Assembly (NCBI GenBank): GCA_025362585.1
Contig: JANYFR010000045.1
Span: forward strand, 2,110 to 66,109
DNA: 64,000 nucleotides
Direction: 5' to 3'
Source of the DNA: Acidimicrobiales bacterium
GTDB taxonomy: Bacteria > Actinomycetota > Acidimicrobiia > Acidimicrobiales > RAAP-2
Shown: piece after piece, positions 10,599-50,141 of the stretch
Position numbering within the stretch: position 1 is the first letter of the stretch
Layout of the letters: every line of letters begins with the position of its first letter
Notes under the pieces: generated by a model
The model's input: the letters and a program-made list of their open reading frames with translations, nothing else
Database searches by the model: none
Told to the model about the DNA's origin: nothing
Position numbers and translations under genes: made by a program

Positions 10599-11576
10599 TC
10601 AGGTGTTCATGGACTTGGTGACCGTGCTCACAATCCGCTCCACCGACGGAATCGCCAGGTCTTCGAGGGCGTCGGCCGCCGGCAAGGGGATGTGGGGCGT
10701 CGTGATACGCACGATTGCACCGTCGAGGTCGTAGAAGGCCTCCTCGCTAACGATCGACGACAACTCCGCGCCCCAGCCGCAGAGCCGGGGGTTCTCTTCC
10801 ACGGTGAACATCCGTCCAGTGGCGATCACCTCGCGAAGAACCGTCGCGGTGTCGAGGGGCACGAGCGATCGAACGTCGATGACGGTGCAGTCAATTCCGG
10901 CGTCGCCGAGATTTTTCGCCGCGACGAGTGCCTTTGGGACCATGTTCCCGAGGGCGATCAGGGTCGCGTCGCCGCCACGTCGCAGTACCTTCGCGAGGCC
11001 CAACTCGTCGACAATCTCGCCGTCGGGGACTTCCATCTTGGAGGAGTAGAGCGCCTTCTCCTCGAGGAAGATGACCGGATCGTCGTCGCGGATCGATGCC
11101 GCCATCAGTCCAATGACGTCGAGGGCGTTCGACGGCACGACGACCTTCAGACCGGGGACCATCATCGCCCAGTTCTCCACGCTCTGCGAATGCTGGGCTC
11201 CGAAGCGCAGTCCGCCACCGTTGCCCGAGCGGATCACCAGCGGAAAGGTCAACTGTCCGTTGGTCATGTACCGACTCTTGGCGATCTCGTTGACGACAAT
11301 GTCCCAACAGACCGCGAAGAAGTCGGCGAACATGATTTCGGCGATCGGGCGAAGCCCGGTCATGGCGGCGCCCATGGCCGCGCCGAGGATGGCCTGCTCG
11401 CTAATCGGCGTGTCGCGTACGCGCACGCCGCCGAACTCCTCCAAGAGTCCAACGGTCCCCTTGAACACACCACCGGCGGCGCCGACGTCCTCGCCGAGCA
11501 AGACCACGGACTCGTCGCGACGCATCTCTTGGGCGATGCCCCGCGCGATCGCCTCTCGAAAGGTCAGTTGCGCCAC
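10599..11576 (-). CDS. TPP-dependent 2-oxoacid/acetoin dehydrogenase E1 beta subunit
   Basis: LLGEDVG, RVRDTPISEQ and HSQSVE motifs. GTG start with GGAGG SD, overlapping the E1 alpha stop. Confidence 0.9.
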   Translation of the reverse strand: MAQLTFREAIARGIAQEMRRDESVVLLGEDVGAAGGVFKGTVGLLEEFGGVRVRDTPISEQAILGAAMGAAMTGLRPIAEIMFADFFAVCWDIVVNEIAKSRYMTNGQLTFPLVIRSGNGGGLRFGAQHSQSVENWAMMVPGLKVVVPSNALDVIGLMAASIRDDDPVIFLEEKALYSSKMEVPDGEIVDELGLAKVLRRGGDATLIALGNMVPKALVAAKNLGDAGIDCTVIDVRSLVPLDTATVLREVIATGRMFTVEENPRLCGWGAELSSIVSEEAFYDLDGAIVRITTPHIPLPAADALEDLAIPSVERIVSTVTKSMNT

Positions 11577-12568
11577 GACGAACCTCCGTCCGCCCAGACG
11601 TCCTTCATCAACAGCTCCTCGCCTGGAATCGGCCCGCTCTTGGCCTCCTCGGTCGCGAGTTCGACCTGAGCCGCGACGGAAAGTTCGATCTCGGTCAGCT
11701 GGGCCTCGGAGGCACCCTCGGCCAGTAGCCGCGCGTGGTAGCGAGGGATCGGGTCCTTGGCCATCCATTCGGCGACCTCGTCGTCGGGGCGGTACTTACC
11801 CGGATCGGCTCTCGAGTGGCCGCCGTGGCGGTACGTCAAGGCTTCGATCATGCTCGGCCCCTCGCCCGCGCGAGCGCGAGCGATTGCCGTGGACGCCACT
11901 TCGTAGACTGCGTCGGCGTCATTGCCGTCGACGATGATCGCTTCGAGTCCGTAGGCCGCCGCCCGATCGGCCGCGGGGTTGGCCACCGCGGTCACTTCGG
12001 AGGTACGCGTGTACTCCATCCAGAGGTTGTTCTCACAGACGAAGACGACCGGGAGCTTCCAGATCGCGGCGAAGTTGAGGGCCTCGTGGAAGGCGCCGAT
12101 GTTCACCGAGCCGTCGCCGAAGAAACAGACGGCGACCTGCTCGGTGCCCCGGTACTGCGCACTCCACGCCGCGCCGCAGGCGATTGGCAGGTGCGCGCCG
12201 ATGATCGCGTAGCTGCCCATGACTCCGTGCTCGACCGAGGTGAGATGCATCGAGCCACCCTTACCGGCCATGAGGCCGTTGGCGCGACCCATCAGCTCGG
12301 CAAAGACCGGCGTCATTGGTACGCCGCGCGCCAGGGTGTGCGCGTGACCGCGATAGGTCGCGAAGGTCCAGTCGGTCGGGCGCATGGCGGCGGCGAAGCC
12401 GGCGGCAATTGCCTCTTGGCCAATGGACAGGTGACTCGTCCCCTTCACGTAGTTCTCGAGGAACAGGTCGTAGGCCCGCGTCTCGAACTGGCGCAACGCC
12501 ACTTGGCACCGATAGAGCGCAAGCTTCTCCGTGAGGTCCATGACGGACGTGGCGATGGTGCTACTCAT
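11564..12568 (-). CDS. TPP-dependent 2-oxoacid/acetoin dehydrogenase E1 alpha subunit
   Basis: TPP motif GDGS...ENN, HLSIGQEA, TYRGH and YRHGGHSRAD. Confidence 0.92.
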   Translation of the reverse strand: MSSTIATSVMDLTEKLALYRCQVALRQFETRAYDLFLENYVKGTSHLSIGQEAIAAGFAAAMRPTDWTFATYRGHAHTLARGVPMTPVFAELMGRANGLMAGKGGSMHLTSVEHGVMGSYAIIGAHLPIACGAAWSAQYRGTEQVAVCFFGDGSVNIGAFHEALNFAAIWKLPVVFVCENNLWMEYTRTSEVTAVANPAADRAAAYGLEAIIVDGNDADAVYEVASTAIARARAGEGPSMIEALTYRHGGHSRADPGKYRPDDEVAEWMAKDPIPRYHARLLAEGASEAQLTEIELSVAAQVELATEEAKSGPIPGEELLMKDVWADGGSSWRN

Positions 12569-12576
12569 GAATGCTC

Positions 12577-13827
12577 CTAGTACTTGTTGGCGACCATCAG
12601 CTCTTGCGCGGGAAACCGCGTAAGGATCGCTGGGCCGTTCTCGGTCACGACAATCTCTTCTTCGATACGGGCAGCCGACACGCCGTCGGTGCCGGGACAG
12701 TAGGTCTCGAGTGCGAAGACCATGCCCGCCTTCAGTTCAATGGGGTCGCTCAGACTGTTCAGTCGACTAATCACCGGGCGCTCGTGTAGTCCGAGGCCCA
12801 GGCCGTGACCGAACTGCAGCCCGAATGCCGCCATCTCGTTCGCGAACCCGAACTCGGTCGCCGCGGGCCACGCCCGCGCGATCTCGTCGGTCCCGACCCC
12901 CGGACGTACGAGGGCGATCGCCGTGTCCATCCACTCGCGCGCTTGGGTGTAGGCGTCACGCTGGACCGCTGTCGAACTACCCACCGACATTGTGCGGTAG
13001 TAGCAGGTGCGGTACCCATTGAACGAGTGAATAATGTCGAAGAAGGCCTGTTCGCCGGGACGGATGATCCGGTCGGTGAAATTGTGGGGGTGCGGATTGC
13101 AGCGTTCACCCGAGACGGCGTTGATTGCTTCAACCTGATCAGAACCCATTTCGTAGAGTCGCTTGTTCGCGAGCGCCACGATCTCGTTCTCACGTACGCC
13201 GGGCTTCAGGGCCTCGAAGATGTCCTGGTAGACACCGTCGACCATCGCGGCCGCCTGCGAGAGGAGCATCAACTCGTCGGGGGACTTGATCTGGCGCGCG
13301 TCGAGCATGAGCTGTTGGGCATCGTGAATCTCCACGCCGGCCTTTTGCATCTCGAAGAGGAAGGGCAGTTCGATGATGTCGATGCCGATCGGTTGACCGG
13401 TGAGGCCCTGATCCGCCAGGATGCCGACGATCTCCTTGACGGCCGACTCGAAGAGGCCGGCGCGCGGTGCAATGGCGCCGCGCAGTCCCAGCATGCCCGC
13501 GCGACAGTTGTCCGGTTCGAGCCACGGCGCGAACAGCTTGTGGTGACGCGCGGCCGAACCGAAGTCCCACACGATCGGCTCGCCGGTGCGCGTGAGCAGG
13601 CAGTAGCGCGTCATCTTGTCCCCGAGAGCTCCGCCCACCCACGTGCCCGACACGTAACGAATGTTGTAGAAGTCAAAGAGCAGGACCGCCGCGAGATCGG
13701 TCGCGTGCAGCGCCTCGCGCGCCCGAGCGAGCCGGTAGCTGCGCAGCCGGTCGAAGTCGACCCTCATCTCAAAGTCGACGCCCGTGTGGCCCGGGGTGTT
13801 GATCGTGGGACCGAAATCGAATTCCAT
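12577..13827 (-). CDS. M24 (Xaa-Pro peptidase/creatinase fold) hydrolase with a non-canonical metal site
   Basis: FFDII...GYRTCYYRT, GHGLGLGLHE, FALET and RIEE. The second metal-ligand Asp is replaced by Cys. Confidence 0.85.
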   Translation of the reverse strand: MEFDFGPTINTPGHTGVDFEMRVDFDRLRSYRLARAREALHATDLAAVLLFDFYNIRYVSGTWVGGALGDKMTRYCLLTRTGEPIVWDFGSAARHHKLFAPWLEPDNCRAGMLGLRGAIAPRAGLFESAVKEIVGILADQGLTGQPIGIDIIELPFLFEMQKAGVEIHDAQQLMLDARQIKSPDELMLLSQAAAMVDGVYQDIFEALKPGVRENEIVALANKRLYEMGSDQVEAINAVSGERCNPHPHNFTDRIIRPGEQAFFDIIHSFNGYRTCYYRTMSVGSSTAVQRDAYTQAREWMDTAIALVRPGVGTDEIARAWPAATEFGFANEMAAFGLQFGHGLGLGLHERPVISRLNSLSDPIELKAGMVFALETYCPGTDGVSAARIEEEIVVTENGPAILTRFPAQELMVANKY

Positions 13828-14762
13828 CAGCGCACCGCCAATCCGTCGTCGACCGCGACGTTCTCGGCGACCAAGGTGAGACCGGCCCCGCGAGCCGCCT
13901 CGAGGAGGAGCACGGCGAAGTCGTCGTCCACGTAGCCCGCCCCTATCGCGCTCTTGACAATCTCGGTGCAGAGCGCCGAGACGGGCATCGGCACGTCGAG
14001 TTCGTAGGCGGCGTGCATCCCGAGGTCGAAGTCTTTGCGCAACAGCGTGGGAGTGAAGGTCGGTGTGAAGTCGAGGTTCACGAACGCGGGTGACTTGTAG
14101 CGGGTGAACATCGAACCCATCACCGAGTTGTTAAGGAACTCGAGCCACGCGCTGCGCTGGACGCCGCCGCGCTCGGCGAGGACCGTGATTTCCGCCATCG
14201 CCTGGGCGACGATTCCGAGCATCATGTTGTGACAGATTTTGACGAGGCGCGCGACCTCGTCGTCGCCGACGTAGGTGACGCCGTTTCCAAGTTGGTCGAA
14301 ATACGGTCGCACGTCGTCGAACGCCTCACGAGTACCCGACACGGCCAGGGTCAGCTTTCCGGCCGCGACCACCTTCGGGTTACCACTCACTGGGGCGGCG
14401 AGGAAGGCCGCGCCCCGGGCGCTACAGGCAGCGCGCACCGCCGAAGAGGTCTCCGTCGACACCGTCGAGCAGTCGACCACGATTCGTGGAGCGTTGCTCG
14501 GATTGGTGAGCAGTCCCTGCTCGCCCGAGGTCACGTCCACCAGATCGGCGTTCGCCGAGACCATGATGAACACGATGTCACAGTGGGCGAGTTCCCTCGG
14601 CGTGTCGACGACGGTCGCCCCGAGTGCGCCGAGGACATCGGCCTTCGCGCGGGTACGATTCGTCACCGTGACTTCGTGGCCCGCGGCGACGAGCCGTCGA
14701 GCCATCGCGGTGCCCATTCGTCCGGCGCCAATCCAGCCAATACGCACTGGGCTCACACTCAT
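13827..14762 (-). CDS. NAD(P)-dependent beta-hydroxyacid dehydrogenase (3-hydroxyisobutyrate/6PGD family)
   Basis: GWIGAGRMG Rossmann motif, APVSG and catalytic Lys in VKICHN. Start ATG 14762 with GGAGG SD. Confidence 0.88.
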   Translation of the reverse strand: MSVSPVRIGWIGAGRMGTAMARRLVAAGHEVTVTNRTRAKADVLGALGATVVDTPRELAHCDIVFIMVSANADLVDVTSGEQGLLTNPSNAPRIVVDCSTVSTETSSAVRAACSARGAAFLAAPVSGNPKVVAAGKLTLAVSGTREAFDDVRPYFDQLGNGVTYVGDDEVARLVKICHNMMLGIVAQAMAEITVLAERGGVQRSAWLEFLNNSVMGSMFTRYKSPAFVNLDFTPTFTPTLLRKDFDLGMHAAYELDVPMPVSALCTEIVKSAIGAGYVDDDFAVLLLEAARGAGLTLVAENVAVDDGLAVR

Positions 14763-14787
14763 TCCGTCCTCCCGATCTCTACTGGTT

Positions 14788-15537
14788 TCAACTGGCGTGC
14801 TTGGTCTCTTCGATCGAACCGCCCAAGTAGAGTGCGCCAATTTCGGGGTTGTTGAGGACGTCAATCCCCGATCCCGACAACCGGACCCTGCCATTCTCGA
14901 GCACGATACCGGTGTGACTCAGCTTCAGCGCCTGACGGGCGTTCTGTTCGACCAACAACACGGTGCGACCCATGCTGTTCATCATCTTGATCGTGGCGAA
15001 CATGGAGCGAAGTGTCTTGGGGTCGAGTCCCATTGAGGGCTCGTCAAGCACCACGAGGTCCGGTTCAAGCATGAGGCACCGGGCGAACTCGACCAGCCGC
15101 TGCTGACCACCCGACAGGCTGCCGGCCTTGTCGCTCGCCCGTTCGGCCACGATTGGGAACATCTCACGTATCGCCGCCATCCGTTCGGCGATGACCTTGC
15201 GGTCCTTCACGAGAAAAGCCCCGAGTTCGACGTTCTCGTCGACCGTCATTTCACGAAAGAGGCTGTGGTGTTGAGGTACCTGGACGACGCCGAGGCGCAG
15301 GATCTGCCTGGGGGTCTGGCCGACCAGGTTCTCCCCCTTGAACCAGATCTCGCCCAATCGCGGCTTGACGAGCCCGCTCACGGTCTTGAGCAGCGTGGAC
15401 TTGCCCGACCCGTTGGGTCCCACGATGCAGGTGACCCCACCCTGTGGTACATCGAACTGAACACCCTTCAGCACGTCGCCCCCACCGTAGCCCGCGACAA
15501 CATTGGTGAAGCGAAGGAACGGGGCGGTCTCAGCCAT
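14788..15537 (-). CDS. LIV-type ABC transporter ATP-binding subunit (LivF-like)
   Basis: GPNGSGKST, LSGGQQ and LDEPSMGL motifs; start at ATG 15537. Confidence 0.9.
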   Translation of the reverse strand: MAETAPFLRFTNVVAGYGGGDVLKGVQFDVPQGGVTCIVGPNGSGKSTLLKTVSGLVKPRLGEIWFKGENLVGQTPRQILRLGVVQVPQHHSLFREMTVDENVELGAFLVKDRKVIAERMAAIREMFPIVAERASDKAGSLSGGQQRLVEFARCLMLEPDLVVLDEPSMGLDPKTLRSMFATIKMMNSMGRTVLLVEQNARQALKLSHTGIVLENGRVRLSGSGIDVLNNPEIGALYLGGSIEETKHAS

Positions 15538-16306
15538 TGACGGCCTCCACGACCTCGTCGTCGTCGCCGCCGCCCAGGTAGGCATCGAGGACGAGTGGAT
15601 TTGACCTCACGGCCGCGGGCTCACCCGACACCAGATTCGTGCCCTGGTGCATCACGCTCACCCAAGTGCAGAGGTTCATCACGAACTCCATGTTGTGCTC
15701 GACGATTAAGAACGTCTTGCCGGACTTATTGAGTGTGCGGATTTTCTCCGCGACCTGATTGATCAGCGTGAGATTGACCCCACCAGCCGGTTCGTCGAGC
15801 AAGATCACGTCGGGGTCGGCGACGAGCACATAGGCGAGCTCGAGGAGCTTGCGCTGGCCGTACGAGAGGGCGCCGGCCTCGAGGTCGGCCAGTCGAGCGA
15901 TGCCCACGAAGTCGAGCCACTCCATTGCCGAGGCGACTTCGGCCTTGGAGGACTTCGAACGCGTCAGGCCGCGCAGCCAGCTCTCGTCGCGCTGGGTCGC
16001 CACCAGCATGTTCTCGAGCACGCTGATGCGACCAAAGATCCGCGTCAACTGGAAGGTCCGCCCGATACCTCGCTCAAACACCACGTTCGGACGCGCGTTG
16101 GTGATGTCGTTGCCTTCGAACGTGACGGTGCCGGCGTCGGGTTTCACGTAGCCAGTGATGACGTTAAAGAGTGTTGTCTTGCCCGAACCGTTTGGCCCGA
16201 TGAGCCCGGTGATGCTCCCCTGCTCGACGTCGAGCGAGCAGTCGACGAGGGCCTTGACGCCCCCGAACGACTTCGACACGTTCTGGGCACTTAGCAGCGT
16301 CGTCAC
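15530..16306 (-). CDS. LIV-type ABC transporter ATP-binding subunit (LivG-like)
   Basis: GPNGSGKTT, LSYGQRK, LLDEPAGG and LDAYLG motifs. Confidence 0.9.
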   Translation of the reverse strand: MTTLLSAQNVSKSFGGVKALVDCSLDVEQGSITGLIGPNGSGKTTLFNVITGYVKPDAGTVTFEGNDITNARPNVVFERGIGRTFQLTRIFGRISVLENMLVATQRDESWLRGLTRSKSSKAEVASAMEWLDFVGIARLADLEAGALSYGQRKLLELAYVLVADPDVILLDEPAGGVNLTLINQVAEKIRTLNKSGKTFLIVEHNMEFVMNLCTWVSVMHQGTNLVSGEPAAVRSNPLVLDAYLGGGDDDEVVEAVNG

Positions 16307-17301
16307 GAGGCCACCCCAGCGACCGCGGCCTCATTGGAGGCGACGGCCGCCTTCTCCCGTTCGGCCTTCTTCGTGACGCGGTCACGCAGGAAGACGACGA
16401 CGCCCTGGGGCATGAACATGATGACGATGAGAAAGAGGGCGCCGTAGAGGAAGAGGTACAGGTACGGGTACGACACGGTGAAGTACTGCTGGCTTGCCTC
16501 GAGGATCAGCGCGCCGAGGAGCGGGCCGGTAAGTGTGCCGAGTCCGCCGAGGAACGCCATCAGCGCGATGCTGATGTCGAAGAAAGGATCAAACGCGAAC
16601 TGGGGGTAGATCTGGCCGAGGAACATTGCGTAGACGGCACCGGCCATGCCAATCGTGAAGGCCGACATGGTGAAGCCGGCGCGCTTCACGGCAGCGACCT
16701 TGACGCCGAGTCCGAGGGCCCGGTCCTCGTCGTCGCGAATCGCCAATAACTGCAAGCCGAACCTCGAGCGGCGTACGACCGCCGACACGACAGTGATGAA
16801 AATGAGAATGCCGAGGGCCACGTAGTAGAAGGGGACGTTGTAGTAGCTCGCGTTCCACTGGATGAAGGGCAGCGCAATGCCCGCCGACCCTCCGGTGAAT
16901 GAGAAGTTGAATGCCGCATTCTGAAAGATGAATAGCGTCGCGATCGTGATGACGACGAACGTGTGGCGCCGCACCCGCAGCGCCGCCCAGCCGATCGGCA
17001 GGGCGACCGCGGAGGCGGCGAGTCCGCCGAGGGGGACGAGCCAGAACATGCCGGCCCCCGGCGCCATGTGCCAATGCGTCGAGGCGAGCGCCATCGTGTA
17101 AGCCCCGACCCCGTAGAAGACGCCTGATCCCAGGGCGACGTAGCCCGAGTAGCCCGAAAACATATTCCACGACGTCGCGCAGGCCATGTACAGCAAGGTG
17201 AGGACGGCGATCGCCATGTAGCTCGGATTAGACACCCACATGGGAAAGAACCCGAACAGGGCGATGGCCGGCAACCACCACAGGTTCTTCTTTTGACGCA
17301 T
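16303..17301 (-). CDS. LIV-type ABC transporter permease (LivM-like)
   Basis: Multi-TM protein with SRFGLQLLAIRDDE and LGGLGTLTGP. Confidence 0.88.
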   Translation of the reverse strand: MRQKKNLWWLPAIALFGFFPMWVSNPSYMAIAVLTLLYMACATSWNMFSGYSGYVALGSGVFYGVGAYTMALASTHWHMAPGAGMFWLVPLGGLAASAVALPIGWAALRVRRHTFVVITIATLFIFQNAAFNFSFTGGSAGIALPFIQWNASYYNVPFYYVALGILIFITVVSAVVRRSRFGLQLLAIRDDEDRALGLGVKVAAVKRAGFTMSAFTIGMAGAVYAMFLGQIYPQFAFDPFFDISIALMAFLGGLGTLTGPLLGALILEASQQYFTVSYPYLYLFLYGALFLIVIMFMPQGVVVFLRDRVTKKAEREKAAVASNEAAVAGVAS

Positions 17302-18185
17302 TACGCCACTCTCGCGGACTGCTTACCGAAGAGTCCCTGGGGACGCACGAGGAGGACCACGACGAGGACGACAAAGTACGACATCGTCGACCAGACCGGG
17401 GACCACACGGTGCCGACCACGTCGCCAATGAACACCATCGACACACCGGCGAGCATGGCGCCGCCAAGACTGCCCATTCCTCCGAGCACGATGATGGTCA
17501 ACAGTCGAGATATCAAGTCGTAGCTGGTACTCGCGTTAAATGCGTTGGTGGAGCCGTAGATCATCCCGCCGGCCGCGGTCACGGCGACGCCGATGCCGAA
17601 GCAGATCGTCGACACGCGACGCACGTCGATACCGACTAGCGCCGCGGACGTCTGGTCGGCGAGGGACGCGCGCACGCTCACCCCAAAGCGAGTGCGGTAC
17701 AACATGAAGTACAGGGCGCTCAGGAGGACGGCCGCCATGACGAAGCCGGCCACGTAGATGAATCCGAAGTGCACTCCACCAATGCTGAAGGATCGAGTCA
17801 CGTACGACGCCTGCAGTTGGACGACGTTGACCGAGAAGACCGTGTTCAAGGTCCCCTCAATCAGCAGCGAGACAGCGTACGTGACCAAGATCGACATGGC
17901 AGTCTTCTCGGGGCCCTTCAATCGAGCCATGAAGACCCGCTCAATCACGACCCCCACGACGAACAGCGTGGGGATCGTGATCAAGAGGCCGACGAAGAGG
18001 TCGATGCCCAGGTGGACCGACAAGGCGTAACTCAAGTAAGCGCCGAGAATCACGAGGATCCCCTGAGCCACGTTGATGATGTCCATGACCCCAAAGATCA
18101 GGGTCAGTCCGGTGGCCATCAGGGCGTAGACCGAACCGGTCAGGATCCCGTCCTTGGCTGCATTGAGGAGTGCAATTGCGTTCAA
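17301..18185 (-). CDS. LIV-type ABC transporter permease (LivH-like)
   Basis: YALMATGLTLIFGVMDIINVAQG and LGGMGSL motifs; TTG start. Confidence 0.88.
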   Translation of the reverse strand: MNAIALLNAAKDGILTGSVYALMATGLTLIFGVMDIINVAQGILVILGAYLSYALSVHLGIDLFVGLLITIPTLFVVGVVIERVFMARLKGPEKTAMSILVTYAVSLLIEGTLNTVFSVNVVQLQASYVTRSFSIGGVHFGFIYVAGFVMAAVLLSALYFMLYRTRFGVSVRASLADQTSAALVGIDVRRVSTICFGIGVAVTAAGGMIYGSTNAFNASTSYDLISRLLTIIVLGGMGSLGGAMLAGVSMVFIGDVVGTVWSPVWSTMSYFVVLVVVLLVRPQGLFGKQSARVA

Positions 18186-18188
18186 GGG

Positions 18189-19445
18189 TTATTTGCCCCA
18201 GGCCGGCTTCGGGTAGACAGGCTTCGCCGACTTGGGGTCAGACGTCGGATTGATCTGGACGAACTTCGTCCCCGACGTACCCTGCCACTGGAAGGTGTAG
18301 GTCAGCGACTGGAAGTTCTGGCCCGCGTTATTGAACTTGACGTTGCCCTCGACGCTCTTCATCAGGACACCCGAGTGGAGGTACTTGATGATCTTCGCGT
18401 TGTCCACACCACCCGTAGCGACGATCGCCTGCGCGGCGACCTGGCCCACGGAGTAGGCCTCGGCGATGTCGGCGTTGACGCCTGCGGCGTTGCCCCCGTA
18501 CTGCTTGATGTATTCGGCCACCATCTTCCGCGAGGCCGGCAGCGCTGAGCCGCCATACCAGGAGTTCGGCACCATAATGCCGTCCGCGTTTGCCTTGCCC
18601 ACGGCCTTTAGAAACGCTGCGCCCTGGTCGGGTCCGGCGGTAGCGATCATGGCCTTGGGATTGAAGCCCGACTGCTCAAAGGCCTGCATGAACGACGACA
18701 CCGTCGGAACGTCGACCGAACCGAGGAGGACCACCTGGGGCTTCGCCGCCGCGACCGCGTCAGCGATGGGCGTGAAGTCGGTCACTTCGGAGGGGAAGAC
18801 CTTGTTGTAGACGGTCTTGATGCCGGCCTTCTCCATGATCTTCTGGGCGACGGGCAGCTGGGGCTGGGTGAAGGGGTCATTGGACGTCACGTACGCCGCG
18901 GTCGTCGGTCGCTGGCTCTTGGGCAGCGACGAAATCCAGGTCGCGAAGGGCACCAGGGCGTTCGCGATGGGCAGCGTCACGTCAAAGACGTTGTGCAGTC
19001 CGGCACTAAAGACCGACGGTGCGCCACCGGCGCCCTCAATCATGGAGTAGCCGAATCGTGAGGCGGCCTTGGCCGCCGGGATCGTCAACAGGGACGAGAA
19101 CGGCCCGAAGACCAGGTTGACGTGCTTCACCGCTATCAGATTCTGGATGTTGGTCTGCACCTGGTCCGCCTTAGAGGCGTCTGACACAAAGGTCAGCACG
19201 ACCTTGTGTCCGAGGAGGCCGCCGGCCCGGTTGACGTCAGCCGCCCAAAGCCGGTACCCCTGCTGGAAGGCAATGCCGTCGGCCGAAAAGTCGCCGCTCA
19301 GTGAGAGCGAGATGCCGATGTTAATGGGCGCGCCTTTGGCGAGTCCGCTCGAGCTGGCGCCACTCGTGGTCGCCATCGTGACTGCTGATGAGACTGCGAG
19401 CGAGCTCACAGCAAGCGTGCGAAAAAGTTTCCCTTTTCTGTTCAT
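18189..19445 (-). CDS. LIV-type (periplasmic binding protein type 1) ABC substrate-binding protein
   Basis: Signal peptide, then INIGISLSLSG, ADVNRAGGLLGHKV and GPFSS. Confidence 0.88.
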   Translation of the reverse strand: MNRKGKLFRTLAVSSLAVSSAVTMATTSGASSSGLAKGAPINIGISLSLSGDFSADGIAFQQGYRLWAADVNRAGGLLGHKVVLTFVSDASKADQVQTNIQNLIAVKHVNLVFGPFSSLLTIPAAKAASRFGYSMIEGAGGAPSVFSAGLHNVFDVTLPIANALVPFATWISSLPKSQRPTTAAYVTSNDPFTQPQLPVAQKIMEKAGIKTVYNKVFPSEVTDFTPIADAVAAAKPQVVLLGSVDVPTVSSFMQAFEQSGFNPKAMIATAGPDQGAAFLKAVGKANADGIMVPNSWYGGSALPASRKMVAEYIKQYGGNAAGVNADIAEAYSVGQVAAQAIVATGGVDNAKIIKYLHSGVLMKSVEGNVKFNNAGQNFQSLTYTFQWQGTSGTKFVQINPTSDPKSAKPVYPKPAWGK

Positions 19446-19695
19446 GTTTTCCCCCTGCGGTTGTTGAACCCTGAAAGACCCCCAAATACCTGCGACTCCA
19501 AGGTGATCACTCGGTGAGCGATTTCGTAACCATAACGACAGGGCCGTTCAAAGTAAAGCGCAGAACTGTCCAAAACGGCCCATTTTGCATGAAAAGAGTT
19601 CAGTCTGTCCTTTAAACGTTTTCAGGCAATTGCCCTATCGGCGACGAGTCTTCGTCCGTTACCATCGCCATCACGACCGTTGTCCTAGGAGGACC

Positions 19696-20766
19696 ATGAC
19701 TGACGTCTTGCTCGAAGCGGCAATCGCCAACTGGGAGCCCCGATTCACGGTCAACGGGGTCGACGCGAACGACTACGCACGCATCACGCGCAATCTCCAG
19801 CGATGGGACGAGTGGTGCGCGGCGTGGTGCGCCGGAGCCGAAGAGCACGTCACCCTTGGCGCCGAGGCACTTCGCGACGGCCGACACTTCAGTGCCGGCG
19901 AGGCCTTCGCTCGCGCGGCGACCTACTTCCACTTCGGCAAATTTCTCTTCGTTCACGACCATGATCAGGCGAGGGCGGCGCACGGGCGCGCCGTGGAATC
20001 ATTGAATCGAGCGACGCCGCTCTTTCGCCCCGGTGGCCAGCGCGTGGAGATCGCCTTCGACGGTTCGACAATCGTGGGGCTCTTTCGCCCCCCACACGCC
20101 AACGGTCCCCACCCGACGGTGCTCTTGATCCCCGGCCTCGACTCAACCAAGGACGAGTTCCGCGAGATCGAGCGATCCTTCCTCGAACGAGGCATGGCCA
20201 CGTTCGCCCTCGACGGCCCGGGCCAGGGCGAAGCTGAATGGACGTTGCCAATTCGACCGGACTGGGAGGTGGTCGGCGAAGCGGTCCTCGCCCGACTCGC
20301 CCAGATGCCCGAGGTCGACGCGACGCGCGTCGGCGTCTGGGGAGTCAGTCTCGGTGGCTACTACGCCGCGCGTCTCGCCAGCTCCAACCTGCCGATACGG
20401 GCCACCATCGCCCTCGCCGGGCCCTACGACCTCGGCGCGTCGTGGTCTAATCTCAACCCCCTCACCCGGCGCGCCTTCGAAGTGCGATCATTCTCCTCGA
20501 CCCCTGAAGAGGCCGAACTGCGGGCTCGAGATATGACGCTCGACGGCCTCGCCTCCAAGATCGCGATGCCGTTGCTCGTCATCATGGGGAAGAAGGACCG
20601 CCTCTTCCCGTGGCAGGACGGGGTGCGTCTGGCCGACGAGGCGCGCGGCGAATCGTCGGTCGTGCTGCTCGAGGACGGCAACCACGGCTGTGCCAATGTC
20701 GTTTATCGTCATCGTCCCCTCAGTGCGGACTGGATGGCCCAACGCCTCGAAATCGGGGCCCCCTAG
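19696..20766 (+). CDS. Alpha/beta hydrolase resembling 2,6-dihydroxypseudooxynicotine hydrolase
   Basis: Nucleophile elbow GVSLGG, PGLDSTK, DGPGQGE and C-terminal GNHG; helical N-terminal extension with WDEWCAAW. AGGAGG SD before ATG 19696. Confidence 0.8.
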   Translation: MTDVLLEAAIANWEPRFTVNGVDANDYARITRNLQRWDEWCAAWCAGAEEHVTLGAEALRDGRHFSAGEAFARAATYFHFGKFLFVHDHDQARAAHGRAVESLNRATPLFRPGGQRVEIAFDGSTIVGLFRPPHANGPHPTVLLIPGLDSTKDEFREIERSFLERGMATFALDGPGQGEAEWTLPIRPDWEVVGEAVLARLAQMPEVDATRVGVWGVSLGGYYAARLASSNLPIRATIALAGPYDLGASWSNLNPLTRRAFEVRSFSSTPEEAELRARDMTLDGLASKIAMPLLVIMGKKDRLFPWQDGVRLADEARGESSVVLLEDGNHGCANVVYRHRPLSADWMAQRLEIGAP

Positions 20767-20808
20767 TGTTTGGCCCGTCGTTTGCGGCAAATTTGGAGAG
20801 CCACTGCC

Positions 20809-22152
20809 ATGGCTGACGTCACGATGCCTCAGTTGGGCGAAACGGTCGCCGACGGCACGGTCACGAAATGGTTGAAGAGCGTGGGCGACGTGGTTACCCG
20901 GGGTGAGCCCCTCTTCGAGGTCTCGACCGACAAGGTCGACACCGAAATACCGGCACCCGCAGACGGCGTGCTCACCGCAATCCTCGTCAACGAGGGCGCC
21001 ACGGTCGACGTCGGGACGCGACTGGCCGTCATCGGTGCGCCGGGCGACATCGAACAGGTCGCACCCCCCGTCGTCGCCAGTGACCGCGCGCCGCTGTCCT
21101 CGACGAACAGACCGGAGTCGCGACGCGAACGCTCCAAGGGCGAGACACTCTCGCCCGTCGTGCGTCGCCTACTCGCCGAGCACGGCCTCGACGCCTCACA
21201 GGTAGTCGCCGCGGGGCCGGCGGGCCGACTCACTCGCGATGACGTCCTCGCCGCCGTCGCCTCGCGAACAGTGACGACCGGTGGCTCTGCGCTCTCGCCC
21301 GTCGTGCGACGACTGCTGGGTGATCAGGGTATTGATCCCTCCTCTTTGGTGGGGACGGGACCAGGAGGACGTCTCACGCGACGCGACGTGGAGGCGGCAA
21401 TTGCCGCGGGGACGACCGGGCGTGTTGTCACGTCAGCAACGGGTGACCAGGTCGTGCCCTTCACGAAGATTCGTCGGCTCACGGCCGAGCACATGGTCCG
21501 GTCTAAAGCCACCTCCGCCCACACCCTGATGGTGAAGGAGACGGACTACGAGCGCGTCGAATTGGTACGTCGGCGACTCGGACCGGCCTTCAAAGAAAGT
21601 GAGGGATTTTCTCTCACGTTTCTGCCCTTCAACGCCCTCGCCGCGCTCCAGGCACTGCGAGAGTTCCCACACCTCAACGCCTCGGTCGGTGACGACGAAC
21701 TAATCGTCCACCACGATCTCAACCTCGGTGTCGCCGTCGACCTCGACGGTGACGGACTGGTGGTGCCAGTCATCCGCCACGCCGCCGGCTACGACCTTCG
21801 CTCAATCGCGCGACGGATTCGCGAACTCGCGACGTCGGCGCGTGCGAAGCAGTTGACCGTGGACGATCTGGCGGGCGGCACGTTCACGATCACCAATCCC
21901 GGACCCTTCGGCACACTCCTGACGGGCGCGGTCATCAACCAGCCCCAGGTGGCGATCCTCTCCACCGACGGCGTCTCGCGCAAGCCGGTCGTGGCAGTAA
22001 CGCCCGATGGTGGCGAGTCCGTGACCATCCACTCGGTGGGCAATCTCGCACTCACCTTCGACCACCGGGCAATCGACGGGGCGTACGCCGCGCGCTACCT
22101 GAGCCGCGTGGCCGAGATCCTGCACACTCGCGACTGGGCCAGCGAACTCTAG
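20809..22152 (+). CDS. Dihydrolipoamide acyltransferase E2 (one lipoyl domain, two peripheral-subunit-binding domains)
   Basis: MPQLGETV...STDKVD lipoyl Lys, LSPVVRRLL twice, and catalytic DHRAIDG. Confidence 0.9.
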   Translation: MADVTMPQLGETVADGTVTKWLKSVGDVVTRGEPLFEVSTDKVDTEIPAPADGVLTAILVNEGATVDVGTRLAVIGAPGDIEQVAPPVVASDRAPLSSTNRPESRRERSKGETLSPVVRRLLAEHGLDASQVVAAGPAGRLTRDDVLAAVASRTVTTGGSALSPVVRRLLGDQGIDPSSLVGTGPGGRLTRRDVEAAIAAGTTGRVVTSATGDQVVPFTKIRRLTAEHMVRSKATSAHTLMVKETDYERVELVRRRLGPAFKESEGFSLTFLPFNALAALQALREFPHLNASVGDDELIVHHDLNLGVAVDLDGDGLVVPVIRHAAGYDLRSIARRIRELATSARAKQLTVDDLAGGTFTITNPGPFGTLLTGAVINQPQVAILSTDGVSRKPVVAVTPDGGESVTIHSVGNLALTFDHRAIDGAYAARYLSRVAEILHTRDWASEL

Positions 22153-22186: not shown

Positions 22187-22798
22187 ATGAAGACGCGGGA
22201 CCGTATTCTCGACGCCGCGGCGCTCGAGATTGAACGAAACGGAATGACGCAGTTCCGAGTGAAACGCGTCGCCTCCGAAGCTGACGTCTCGGTGGCGCTG
22301 CTCTACAGCTACTTCGATGACCGCGAAGACCTGATCGCCGCGACGATGGTACATCGCTATCGTCAGGTCCTCATCGGAACCGCCAAGATCTTCACCGAGC
22401 CCCTGAAGAACGTGGCGACGGGCGACGACCTACGCGCAGCCCTCCGCGTCATCATCGCCGACGCCCAGACTCCCGAACGAACCGAGGCGAGGAACCTGCG
22501 CATCGAGGGCATGTCCTTCGCTCAGCACAACCCCACCGCCCTCGCTGGCGTCGCTGACGCGAAGCGCGAGGCGAGCACCTTGATTATGAGCAGCGTCCAG
22601 CCCCTCGTCGACAAGGACCTCCTCGCCGACGGCATGAGCGGCGTCGCGTTCGCCAGAATCTGGTACGCATTGTTCTTTGGACAGATCGCTCTCGAGGGAG
22701 AGCACGCCCTCTCCATCGATGACGACGACTGGCTGCGGGCCCTGCAGGTGATCGCCGAATCGGCGATCCGCACGAACCGCAATATTCCAGTCCCCTAG
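22187..22798 (+). CDS. TetR/AcrR family transcriptional regulator
   Basis: N-terminal HTH TRDRILDAA...VASEADVSVALLYSYF. Confidence 0.85.
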   Translation: MKTRDRILDAAALEIERNGMTQFRVKRVASEADVSVALLYSYFDDREDLIAATMVHRYRQVLIGTAKIFTEPLKNVATGDDLRAALRVIIADAQTPERTEARNLRIEGMSFAQHNPTALAGVADAKREASTLIMSSVQPLVDKDLLADGMSGVAFARIWYALFFGQIALEGEHALSIDDDDWLRALQVIAESAIRTNRNIPVP

Positions 22799-22985
22799 CG
22801 TACTTGCGCCTCGCAATGCGAGGAGGGAGGTTCACTCGAATCAGCATCTTCCGACGGCCATTTCATCGAAGTGCTGATCGATGAACAGCGACGCGTGATG
22901 GTCGCCTTCCTCGAGGCGAGTCGATGCTCGTTTGACCCGTTAACGACCGTGGGTTCAACGGTGGTCGAGCGCTCGAGCGCCAATG

Positions 22986-23468
22986 TCAGCCCACGAATCG
23001 CGCCCGCGAGGCCTCGAGTTCCGCCAACGCCTCGTGGCGTCCGACGTAGTTCTCGACCTTTACCCACTTGCCTTCGTCGAGGTCCTTGTAGACCGTGAAG
23101 AAGTGGCTAATCCGGTCGAGGAGTTGTTGGGGCACGTCGGTGATGTCGGTCGCCGACTTCCACCGCGGGTCGTAGTTGGGAACGGTGATCAACTTGGCGT
23201 CCTCGCCCTTCTCGTCGGTCATCACGCACATCCCGAGGATCCGGGCCTCGATCAGGCACCCCGGAAATGTCGGGAACTCCGTGAGGACGAGGGCGTCGAG
23301 GGGGTCGCCATCGCCACCGAGGGTGTCGGGGATGAAACCGTACTCGGCGGGGTACCCCATCGCGACGATCAGGTGTCGGTCCAGCATGATCGTGTGCGAC
23401 TCGTGGTCGTACTCATACTTATTACGACTGTCGCGGGGTATCTCCACGACGACCTTTACCGTGTCCAT
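22986..23468 (-). CDS. ppa: Inorganic pyrophosphatase (family I)
   Basis: NKYEYD, YGFIPDT, DGDPLDALV and FFTVYKDL motifs. Confidence 0.95.
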   Translation of the reverse strand: MDTVKVVVEIPRDSRNKYEYDHESHTIMLDRHLIVAMGYPAEYGFIPDTLGGDGDPLDALVLTEFPTFPGCLIEARILGMCVMTDEKGEDAKLITVPNYDPRWKSATDITDVPQQLLDRISHFFTVYKDLDEGKWVKVENYVGRHEALAELEASRARFVG

Positions 23469-23657
23469 GAAATCGTCGGCTCCTCGATTGGTGTCGCCGC
23501 AACGACGACGCAGTTGTGGTCAATCGTAGCCATCCTCTCCACGCCTGCTTACCCGAGAATCGTCGCCCCAGACTCAGTTCACCGTTCGGGGACTGACGAA
23601 GGGGCGAGCGTAGACTTTGCCGTTGGGGTCGACGACTCGACGGAGATGGAGGTCTCG

Positions 23658-24512
23658 ATGGAGCGCATAGGTGTGGTGGGTTGTGGACTGATGGGATCGG
23701 GCATTGCCGAGATCGCGGCTCGAGCGGGCGCCGACGTCGTCGTCGTCGAGCGTGACGCCTCGGCGGTCGCACAGGGAGTGGCGCGAATCGAGCGCTCCCT
23801 CACCCGCGCCGTCGCCGCCGGCAAGATTCCCGACGATGAGGCCAACCGGACCCGAGGAAATCTGACCTTCGGCGAGGACTTCGCCATGCTCGCCGATCGC
23901 GAACTGGTCATCGAAGCCGTCGCCGAGGACGAAATCACCAAACTCGCGGTCTTTGAGAAACTCGACGACGTCGTCCTCGACCCCCGCGCCATCCTCGCCA
24001 CCAATACGTCGTCCATACCCATCATCAAACTGGCGATGGCGACCGACCGACCCGAGCAGGTCATCGGCATGCATTTCTTTAACCCGGTGCCGGTGTTGAA
24101 ACTCGTCGAGGTCATCTCGTCACTGCTCACCAGCGCGGAGACCACCGCGCGGGTCCACGCCTACGCCAGCGACGCGCTCGCGAAAAAGGTCATCTCCTCA
24201 AAAGACCGGGCCGGCTTCGTCGTGAACGCGCTCCTCATTCCCTATCTGCTCTCGGCGATCCGAATGCTCGAAACCGGCTTCGCCAGTGCCGAGGACATCG
24301 ACACCGGAATGGTCCTCGGCTGCGCCCATCCCCTTGGACCCCTGGCCCTGACTGACCTCATTGGACTCGACACCACACTCGCCGTGGCCGAGTCGCTCTA
24401 CGAGGAGTTCAAGGAGTCACACCTTGCTCCTCCGCCGCTGCTCTCTCGCATGACCCAGGCCGGACTCTTGGGCCGAAAGTCGGGTCAAGGTTTCTACTCA
24501 TACAAGGTTTGA
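23658..24512 (+). CDS. 3-hydroxybutyryl-CoA dehydrogenase
   Basis: GVVGCGLMGSG, IEAVAE, TNTSS, GMHFFNP and GFVVN motifs; GGAGG SD. Confidence 0.92.
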   Translation: MERIGVVGCGLMGSGIAEIAARAGADVVVVERDASAVAQGVARIERSLTRAVAAGKIPDDEANRTRGNLTFGEDFAMLADRELVIEAVAEDEITKLAVFEKLDDVVLDPRAILATNTSSIPIIKLAMATDRPEQVIGMHFFNPVPVLKLVEVISSLLTSAETTARVHAYASDALAKKVISSKDRAGFVVNALLIPYLLSAIRMLETGFASAEDIDTGMVLGCAHPLGPLALTDLIGLDTTLAVAESLYEEFKESHLAPPPLLSRMTQAGLLGRKSGQGFYSYKV

Positions 24513-48644: not shown

Positions 48645-50141
48645 GTGAGTGTCCACGTGCCTCCCGCGAATGAGCCCGACGTCTCGGAGCAGAACCCGGT
48701 CTCGGAGCGTTGGGTCTGGGCGGGGCACCATCGTCCCCCGGTGCCGCGCGCCCTCGTCGATCACATGACCGCGAACTGGGCGCCCGACGAGCCGGTCGAG
48801 GTGGTCCATCCCGCGGCCGCCTATTGCGCGCAACGTCGCGAGCGACTGGCCGCCCAGTTTCCCGAACGGACCCTGGTCGTCGCCACGGGTCATCCGAAGG
48901 TGCGCGCGAACGACACCGACTACCGCTTTCGCCCCGGCACCGACTTCTTTTATCTGACGGGCTGCGTCGAACCGGACGTCGTGCTCGTCATCGCACCCGG
49001 TCAACGTGGCCCTCGCGCGACGCTCTACGTGCCCGAGCGGCGCGACCAACGGACCTTCGAGTTCTTCACCGACGCGCGATACGGTGAGTTGTGGGTTGGG
49101 CCCCGACGCGGCGTCAGCGAAGCGGCGAGCTACTACGGCATCGACACCGCCCCCATCGAGCACCTCGCGAAGGACCTCGCGTCAGTCGCCAACGACGCCG
49201 TCCTGGTCGTGCGCGGCTTTGACTCGTTGCTCGACGGGCTCGTGCCGGCGAACCACGCCGACGAGCTGCTCGCGACGGCACTCAGCGAGATGCGCCTCAC
49301 GAAGGACGACTTCGAGGTCGCCCAACTCCAGTTGGCGATCGACTACACGGTGAAGGGCTTCGAGGACGTCGTGCGAGCATTGCCCTCCGCCGAGGGGCGC
49401 GGCGAGCGCGTCATCGAGGGGATCTTCAACCTGCGCGCCCGCGTCGAGGGTAATGACGTGGGGTACGACACGATCGCGGCGAGCGGTTCGGACGCGACGG
49501 TGCTGCACTGGACCCGCAACAATGGCACCGTGCGCCGTGGCGACCTCCTGCTACTCGACGCGGGGGTCGAGTGCCACCACCTCTACACCGCCGACGTGAC
49601 GAGGACGATGCCGATCAGCGGCACGTTCTCCGAGGCCCAACGTCGCGTCTACGAACTGGTGCTGGCGGCCCAGGAGGCCGGCATCGCCGCGGTCGGGCCG
49701 GGCGTCGCGTACCGCGCACCGCACGACGCGGCCATGAGAATACTGACCGAAGGACTGTGCGCGATGGGGATCTTGACGGTCGAGCCCGAAGAGGCCCTGC
49801 GCAACGACCACCAGTTCCATCGCCGCTACACCCTGCACGGGACCAGCCACATGCTCGGCCTCGACGTCCACGACTGCGACAACGCGCGCGACGAGATGTA
49901 CCGCGAGGGAGTCCTGCACGAGGGTTACGTCCTCACCGTCGAGCCCGGACTGTACTTTCAGGCGAACGACTTAACGGTACCGGAGCAGTACCGGGGCATC
50001 GGGGTTCGCATCGAAGACGACATCCTCGTGACCGCCACCGGATCGCGCAATCTCTCGGCCGCTCTGCCGCGCCAGGTCGACGACGTGGAGGCGTGGATGG
50101 CCGGTCTCTTCGCGCAGGGGCCCACGAACCTCGGGCTCTAG
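48645..50141 (+). CDS. pepP: Xaa-Pro aminopeptidase
   Basis: RANDTDYRFR, with canonical ligands LDAG...YTADVTRT, HMLGLDVHD, TVEPG and RIEDD. Confidence 0.92.
   Translation: MSVHVPPANEPDVSEQNPVSERWVWAGHHRPPVPRALVDHMTANWAPDEPVEVVHPAAAYCAQRRERLAAQFPERTLVVATGHPKVRANDTDYRFRPGTDFFYLTGCVEPDVVLVIAPGQRGPRATLYVPERRDQRTFEFFTDARYGELWVGPRRGVSEAASYYGIDTAPIEHLAKDLASVANDAVLVVRGFDSLLDGLVPANHADELLATALSEMRLTKDDFEVAQLQLAIDYTVKGFEDVVRALPSAEGRGERVIEGIFNLRARVEGNDVGYDTIAASGSDATVLHWTRNNGTVRRGDLLLLDAGVECHHLYTADVTRTMPISGTFSEAQRRVYELVLAAQEAGIAAVGPGVAYRAPHDAAMRILTEGLCAMGILTVEPEEALRNDHQFHRRYTLHGTSHMLGLDVHDCDNARDEMYREGVLHEGYVLTVEPGLYFQANDLTVPEQYRGIGVRIEDDILVTATGSRNLSAALPRQVDDVEAWMAGLFAQGPTNLGL

Follow-up and report, generated by a model that had tools for sequence, protein, structure and literature searches.

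A pita-bread (M24) enzyme family with cysteine at the position of a metal-bridging aspartate, sister to DddP and linked to a candidate catabolic gene cluster

Enzymes of the M24 superfamily, which share the pita-bread fold, have a dinuclear metal site that in its textbook form is built of carboxylates and histidine only; creatinase, also of this fold, is metal-free. In the M24B Xaa-Pro peptidases the site has five ligands (Asp, Asp, His, Glu, Glu), and in the dimethylsulfoniopropionate (DMSP) lyase DddP the metal ligands are D295, D297, D307, H371, E406, and E421, with Tyr366 and Asp377 as candidate catalytic bases (PMC4108388; mutant structures 4s00 and 4s01). Here we describe an M24 gene in a 64,000-nucleotide stretch, referred to below as the window, of a metagenome-assembled genome of Acidimicrobiales (2.09 Mb, 96% complete; GCA_025362585.1, contig JANYFR010000045.1, positions 2,110 to 66,109 of the forward strand). 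Its product, which we call M24C, has cysteine where the bridging metal Asp would stand, and so does almost every member of its family. At a probability of about 55%, our reading of the sequences and their gene linkage is that M24C is a thiolate-ligated metalloenzyme, either a hydrolase or a lyase, of a catabolic pathway.

The gene and the residues at its five canonical ligand positions are as follows.

12577-13827, minus strand: M24 pita-bread enzyme with a Cys-substituted metal site (M24C), 416 amino acids; from the open reading frame, translation, Pfam, and an AlphaFold2 model.
13036-13038, minus strand: Asp264, first metal ligand, codon GAC; from alignments to prolidases and DddP.
13003-13005, minus strand: Cys275, in the place of the bridging metal Asp (DddP D307), codon TGC; from alignments.
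12805-12807, minus strand: His341, metal ligand within GHGLG, codon CAC; from alignments.
12706-12708, minus strand: Glu374, metal ligand (ALET), invariant in the family, codon GAG; from alignments.
12661-12663, minus strand: Glu389, metal ligand (RIEEE), invariant in the family, codon GAA; from alignments.

The translated reading frame is free of stops across all 416 residues, and the product belongs to the Peptidase_M24 superfamily and has its pita-bread fold. PF00557 matches residues 189-396 at 130.1 bits (cut-off 23, E = 1.2e-37, model positions 3-208 of 208), Pfam places a Creatinase_N domain at residues 32-180, and the AlphaFold2 model (pLDDT 91.3, pTM 0.88) matches M24 structures at a probability of 1.00. 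Residues 262-279 are FFDIIHSFNGYRTCYYRT. An earlier note on this DNA had pointed to a Cys 11 residues after the first Asp, and this is borne out by C275 and D264 and by their codons; the His and two Glu ligands that it listed as retained are there as well, and the PepP of the window (48645-50141) does keep the Asp (...LLLDAG...LYTADVTRT). By phmmer, C275 aligns with the second metal Asp of GYnSDmtRT in the solved prolidases 5cdl and 1pv9, and in the family-profile alignment its counterpart is D307 of DddP, while D295, H371, E406, and E421 of DddP correspond to D264, H341, E374, and E389. Set against the five ligands of the M24B peptidases, M24C has Cys275 for the second Asp and keeps the other four. 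Set against the six ligands of DddP, it has Ile266 for D297 and Cys275 for D307 and again keeps the other four, and the candidate bases Tyr366 and Asp377 align with G336 and H348, so that neither is conserved.

Chance can be ruled out as the source of this cysteine, because it is carried by all 119 close homologues (87-96% identity), each of which reads D-I-C-H-E-E, and by 116 of 127 distant representatives. The distant set comprised the best 150 of the 50%-identity cluster representatives from 1.84 billion proteins, of which 127 cover position 275; five of these have Asp, and the remainder are mostly fragments. In 27 full-length sequences, the most divergent of them at 31% identity, neither E374 nor E389 ever varies, and C275, H341, Y272, Y277, and R278 are each kept in at least 90%. 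Position 348 varies within the family (H, W, Y, F, G, S, Q, P). The most strongly conserved ligands are thus C275, H341, E374, and E389, so that the conserved core of the family coincides with the set which we take, from the structures of MetAP and PepP, to form the M1 site. Three members (P0250, P0251, and P0267) have lost D264, replaced by A, L, or Q, yet keep these four. The subclade formed by the same three proteins also carries Cys at position 266, which corresponds to the DddP-specific ligand D297, and this brings the number of cysteines around the site to two, and to three in P0250.

We delimited the M24C family by the motif GY[RK][TS]C[YV]YR[TC] and the D-C-H-E-E ligand pattern, inside the clade that is sister to DddP; the window protein has the motif and the pattern and falls in the clade. 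In its narrower form, GY[RK][TS]CYYRT, the motif was found in at least 600 stretches of one-genome-per-species GTDB contigs and in at least 600 species genomes.

The relationship to DddP emerges from searches, fold, and phylogeny. As a single sequence, M24C finds prolidases as its best solved matches (E = 4.7e-25), over the catalytic domain only; as a family profile, it places DddP first, above every peptidase, in an end-to-end match (E = 8e-57, 196 bits) that takes in the N-terminal domain as well. DddP also has the closest fold to the AlphaFold2 model (TM 0.82), followed by prolidases, DoeA, and creatinase. For phylogeny, true DddP, DddP-like, and DoeA genes were drawn from alphaproteobacterial genomes with NCBIfam models and aligned. 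In the maximum-likelihood tree, with PepP as the outgroup, the Cys proteins and two basal Asp-bearing proteins (P0229 and P0239) form one clade (SH-aLRT 99), and its sister is a clade of DddP and DddP-like proteins (SH-aLRT 97). The Asp/Cys state changes at most twice in this tree, which together with the placement puts the swap near the base of the family, where it was fixed afterwards. The final tree leaves out DoeA and the genome's own creatinase-like M24: in the first tree both had been placed within the Cys clade, on very long branches that make the placement a possible artefact. Judged by sequence, the M24C proteins make up a large uncharacterised family with the DMSP lyase DddP as its sister clade. 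The DddP model itself (NF043017), whose cut-off is 600 bits, gives the window protein 100.9 bits and true alphaproteobacterial DddP proteins 609-903. The same model at E <= 1e-100 matched 29 of 151 sampled alphaproteobacterial genomes (roughly 345-900 bits) and exceeded 600 bits in only 2, so true DddP and the Cys family are separated by a large DddP-like group whose function is uncertain.

The earlier note had cited DoeA and creatinase as precedents for loss of the second Asp. For DoeA this holds in part: the Asp is indeed gone (Pro in its place), but three further ligands have been lost with it and the first Asp has become Glu, so that the five ligand positions are occupied by E, P, Y, M, I in the aligned DoeA equivalogs. 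Because the whole metal site is lost in DoeA, the analogy is imperfect; in M24C four ligands are kept and the fifth is exchanged for another good metal ligand, which makes this an altered site rather than a lost one. On the DoeA model (TIGR02993) M24C scores 75.6 bits against a cut-off of 613. The DoeA equivalogs (L086-L088) have a Cys of their own one residue ahead of the lost Asp position, in RYHCPLSRT. Besides M24C, the canonical PepP, and another M24 protein at 180 bits, the genome encodes a fourth M24 enzyme on a different contig (C58; L084:1441-2691, minus strand; 416 amino acids, 86.7 bits on PF00557), in which most metal ligands are lost (...STEITVNFFDYGGQVLRT..., HGYGGG, VVQPN); it is therefore likely a second non-peptidase, of the creatinase/DoeA kind, in a genome of 2.1 Mb.

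M24C is the seventh gene of a nine-gene leftward operon, whose order is a Peripla_BP_6 protein, two permeases, two ATPases, a beta-hydroxyacid dehydrogenase, M24C, and the alpha and beta subunits of a thiamine pyrophosphate (TPP)-dependent E1. The surrounding features are listed here.

13827-14894, minus strand: beta-hydroxyacid dehydrogenase of the HIBADH, tartronate-semialdehyde reductase, or succinic-semialdehyde reductase type; Pfam NAD_binding_2 and NAD_binding_11.
11564-12568, minus strand: TPP-dependent E1 alpha subunit, starting 8 nucleotides past the M24C stop; profile matches.
10599-11768, minus strand: E1 beta subunit, the listed open reading frame being over-extended; Pfam and profile matches.
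14788-19445, minus strand: Liv/HAAT-type ATP-binding cassette (ABC) importer of two ATPases, two permeases, and the Peripla_BP_6 binding protein (18189-19445); profile matches.
19585-20766, plus strand: divergent alpha/beta hydrolase of the DHPON-hydrolase, Ayg1, or AntI type (retro-Claisen C-C hydrolases); Pfam FrsA-like.
20770-22152, plus strand: lipoyl-bearing E2 acyltransferase; profile match.
22187-22798, plus strand: TetR-family regulator; profile match.

The TGA stop of the dehydrogenase shares one base with the ATG of M24C (TGATG), and the two genes are, from their sequence, translationally coupled. The dehydrogenase likely starts at M45 (14762) and carries a GxGxxG motif and the catalytic Lys motif LVKICHN; every NCBIfam match falls under its cut-off, and the nearest PDB entries are 3pef, 3pdu, 3doj, and 1yb4. 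The first three are succinic-semialdehyde and glyoxylate reductases, and tartronate-semialdehyde reductases are also among the nearest solved relatives. The Pfam match of E1 beta begins at residue 66, so its true start should lie near 11570. The divergent hydrolase matches DHPON hydrolase (2jbw) over its full length (E = 8.7e-43) and also matches the Ayg1 and AntI retro-Claisen enzymes. Just past the TetR gene lies a 3-hydroxybutyryl-CoA dehydrogenase (22983-24512, plus strand), extended at its N terminus by some 220 residues that lie outside the listed NCBIfam matches; only in the closest relative (L001) is this gene conserved.

The linkage of these genes extends far beyond the window. We analyzed 80 loci from named genomes and recovered M24C as an open reading frame cluster in 74. 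The beta-hydroxyacid dehydrogenase is directly upstream on the same strand in 52 of the 74, E1 beta is present in 40, E1 alpha in 25, a fused alpha-beta E1 in 10, E2 in 31, the DHPON-type hydrolase in 21, and a VOC protein in 19, and an aldehyde dehydrogenase resembling succinic-semialdehyde dehydrogenase (SSADH) is directly downstream in 28. Two types of E1 occur near M24C, orthologues of the window genes at 60-87% identity and the fused type at 33-38%, and LacI, GntR, or TetR regulators are among the neighbors. The importers interchange: Liv-type ABC; Dpp/Opp-type ABC in Aquiluna; TctC binding proteins, of the tripartite tricarboxylate transporters (TTT), and NMT1 binding proteins in Burkholderiales; and the major facilitator superfamily. 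Some loci have additional C-N hydrolases (Amidohydro_3, CN_hydrolase, amidase), and some a second M24.

On Phaeobacter plasmids M24C (PhaeoP92_RS21025 is one such homologue) stands with E1 alpha, E1 beta, a lipoyl protein, SSADH, an E2 core, and LpdA, and a beta-hydroxyacid dehydrogenase is in a neighboring divergent operon. On pHV4 of Haloferax volcanii a homologue of 35% identity (HVO_RS04235), with D, C, H, E, and E all kept, has as neighbors a TPP enzyme of the acetolactate-synthase type, an NAD-dependent oxidoreductase, hydantoinase A/B, and an ABC binding protein. Throughout the family, therefore, M24C is linked to an NAD dehydrogenase and a TPP enzyme. An Nramp divalent-metal importer near the Haloferax gene (L095:14083-15300) hints that this cluster has its own metal supply. 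On the Phaeobacter inhibens plasmid pP92_e (L093:13289-20291), the system beside M24C is a dedicated one resembling a 2-oxoacid dehydrogenase, and it has a split E2, consisting of a 428-residue two-lipoyl protein and a separate 292-residue catalytic core, with the SSADH gene between the halves and its own lpdA behind them.

Among 200 further genomes of the same order, just 10 have close homologues of M24C, and none was found in three genomes of the same genus or one of the same family. Proteins 64-68% identical are found in Burkholderiales, Rokubacteria, Dormibacterota, and Vulcanimicrobiota. This distribution has the look of a catabolic module that moves horizontally. Members of the family are frequent in soil Actinomycetota and in haloarchaea, and carriers of the motif include Haloferax volcanii, Phaeobacter, Mycolicibacterium (with a homologue in M. 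vanbaalenii), and Rhodococcus as well as very small genomes, namely the present 2.1-Mb Acidimicrobiales genome and a 1.4-Mb Aquiluna. The span of at least 600 species genomes, the very small genomes among them, and the tractable hosts make the pathway probably relevant ecologically and directly testable.

From the residue pattern and its conservation, the position in the tree, and the gene linkage, we infer metal binding, a type of reaction, and an order of steps. The bridging Asp gave way to Cys early in the history of the family, and the Cys has persisted since. Metal would still be bound, with C275, H341, E374, and E389 as a thiolate-containing M1 site and D264 supplying a second, more dispensable one; retention of a metal site is argued by the fixation of three acidic ligands and His, which have been replaced in the aligned, metal-free DoeA. 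Exchanging the bridging carboxylate for Cys would make the first shell softer and less negative, would shift the preference toward Fe(II), Zn, Co, or Ni, and might render the site effectively mononuclear. The metal center may either activate water for C-N hydrolysis of an amide or amidine or polarize a bound carboxylate or carbonyl for elimination. The earlier note's putative new amidohydrolase or amidinohydrolase chemistry is plausible.

The predicted substrate is a small carboxylate that is not a peptide, probably contains nitrogen, and would be taken up through the neighboring transporter. The coupled beta-hydroxyacid dehydrogenase would handle either the product or the substrate of M24C, and the carbon skeleton would pass through the dedicated TPP-dependent E1 alpha/beta-E2 to an acyl-CoA; in other genomes the SSADH-like dehydrogenase and the C-C hydrolase presumably join the pathway. 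We considered four more specific substrate ideas and adopted none of them. Dihydroxypropanesulfonate (DHPS) or sulfolactate would employ a DddP-like C-S lyase, a YihU-like reductase, and a GabD-like dehydrogenase; it was set aside on the ground that the window cluster has no sulfite-handling gene and that the importers are of the Liv type. Pantothenate or pantoate would be degraded by amide hydrolysis, a primary-alcohol dehydrogenase, an aldehyde dehydrogenase, and a 2-oxoacid dehydrogenase, and the enzyme classes fit, but no dimethylmalate dehydrogenase is present. A ureide or amidine that releases glyoxylate would suit the resemblance of the dehydrogenase to glyoxylate and tartronate-semialdehyde reductases and the hydantoinase genes of the Haloferax cluster. 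A substrate yielding 4-hydroxybutyrate, for the dehydrogenase and SSADH, leaves E1 and E2 unexplained.

Several observations weigh against a thiolate-ligated metalloenzyme of catabolism. In two actinobacterial genomes the Cys-M24 gene lies within a proteasome/Pup operon; Liv- and Dpp-type importers suit amino-acid or dipeptide-like substrates too; the His of the prolidase HE.P motif is retained in the subfamily of the window (H348); no biochemical reports on any M24C member were found in the literature; and a gene neighborhood indicates linkage to a pathway and not the reaction catalyzed. At the two proteasome/Pup loci (L061:8199-14160 and L069:3505-11230) the gene follows prcB-prcA near the Pup ligase and the Mpa ATPase, and the usual dehydrogenase or E1 neighbors are missing.

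Another reading is an ordinary Xaa-Pro dipeptidase or aminopeptidase that would use Cys for Asp and scavenge peptides beside an amino-acid or peptide importer. Prolidases are the best single-sequence matches in the PDB, H348-E349 fits the HE.P motif, Liv- and Dpp-type importers adjoin, the gene lies between prcA and pafA in the two genomes just mentioned, and the public annotation is "Xaa-Pro peptidase family." All of the peptidase equivalog models, however, score far under their cut-offs (PepQ_Arch 78.9 against 630, PRK09795 65 against 393, and PRK10879, which is PepP, 30.7 against 465), the family profile puts DddP above every peptidase with the N-domain included, position 348 is variable within the family, the operon with the dehydrogenase and TPP E1/E2 is fixed across phyla, and the genome already holds PepP and the M24 protein of 180 bits. 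We regard a peptidase as quite improbable, and the earlier note's "probably not a peptidase" is backed indirectly, by the nearest relative being DddP, by the catabolic operon, and by the other M24 enzymes of the genome. That relative brings up another possibility, a DddP-type lyase that carries out beta-elimination of a sulfonium, ammonium, or sulfonate group from a carboxylate, DMSP or an analogue. It draws on the closeness of DddP by profile, fold, and tree, on the presence of the gene on Roseobacter plasmids, and on the NMT1/SsuA-like and TTT binding proteins of the Burkholderiales clusters; but the score on the DddP model is a sixth of the cut-off, the DddP-specific ligand D297 is Ile or Leu here, the counterparts of Tyr366 and Asp377 are non-conserved, the window cluster has no sulfite- or amine-handling genes, and the family is common among soil Actinomycetota and haloarchaea. 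We consider this lyase very improbable.

A different use of the cysteine can also be imagined, in a metal-free hydrolase that works in the manner of creatinase, with Cys275 as the nucleophile alongside His341 and a Glu and with amidino- or amidohydrolysis through a covalent thio-intermediate. The positions of Cys275 and His341 bind the same metal in M24 enzymes and should therefore be adjacent, related members of the superfamily (DoeA and creatinase-like proteins) function without the canonical site, D264 is dispensable in three members, and the Amidohydro_3, CN_hydrolase, and amidase genes of some loci suggest a substrate rich in amides or amidines. Against this, D264, E374, E389, and the His are near-universal, which is what a metal site needs and what the metal-free relatives have discarded, and the Haloferax cluster has the Nramp importer. 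We find such a cysteine hydrolase unlikely and prefer the thiolate-ligated metalloenzyme.

The named database copies examined are all annotated as "Xaa-Pro peptidase," "aminopeptidase P family," or M24 metallopeptidase, and for M24C this peptidase annotation is probably wrong. A literature search of incomplete coverage turned up no description of a Cys-substituted M24 site or of this cluster, and a paper on GapMind and RB-TnSeq makes no mention of either. A strictly conserved, deep Asp-to-Cys swap at the bridging position would be new coordination chemistry in an old fold and would also tell how the pita-bread fold was recruited for non-peptide substrates. More tentatively, and with the balance leaning slightly against it, we suggest that M24C is a Cys-His-Glu-Glu metalloenzyme, a coordination undescribed for this fold, and the signature of a widespread, mobile, unnamed pathway for the degradation of an abundant nitrogenous carboxylate. 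Such a pathway would run from M24C through the beta-hydroxyacid dehydrogenase to the dedicated TPP E1/E2, with or without SSADH and the retro-Claisen hydrolase, and its users would be soil, freshwater, and marine bacteria and haloarchaea.

Among the known systems, DddP (4b28, 4rzy/4s00/4s01) shares with M24C a creatinase-type N-domain joined to a pita-bread C-domain, but the identity is only about 22-26% and the genomic context is different. The M24B Xaa-Pro peptidases (5cdl, 1pv9, and E. coli PepP) share the fold, four of five ligands, and, in the subfamily of the window, the HE.P motif, but the N-domain of M24C resembles that of DddP and not that of prolidase, and M24C stands in an operon with the dehydrogenase and TPP E1/E2. 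DoeA/EutD (6twk) and creatinase (1chm and 7yto, the latter a weak sequence match at E = 9.7e-9) are non-peptidase M24 enzymes with the same two-domain fold that take part in the catabolism of small nitrogenous solutes, and DoeA, too, is without the second Asp; its metal site, however, is gone, whereas M24C has D, C, H, E, and E. Outside the superfamily, peptide deformylase offers an analogy of principle: it acts on an amide with one first-shell Cys thiolate on its hydrolytic metal, in a Cys-His-His Fe(II) site, although its fold and ligand set are unrelated to those of M24C.

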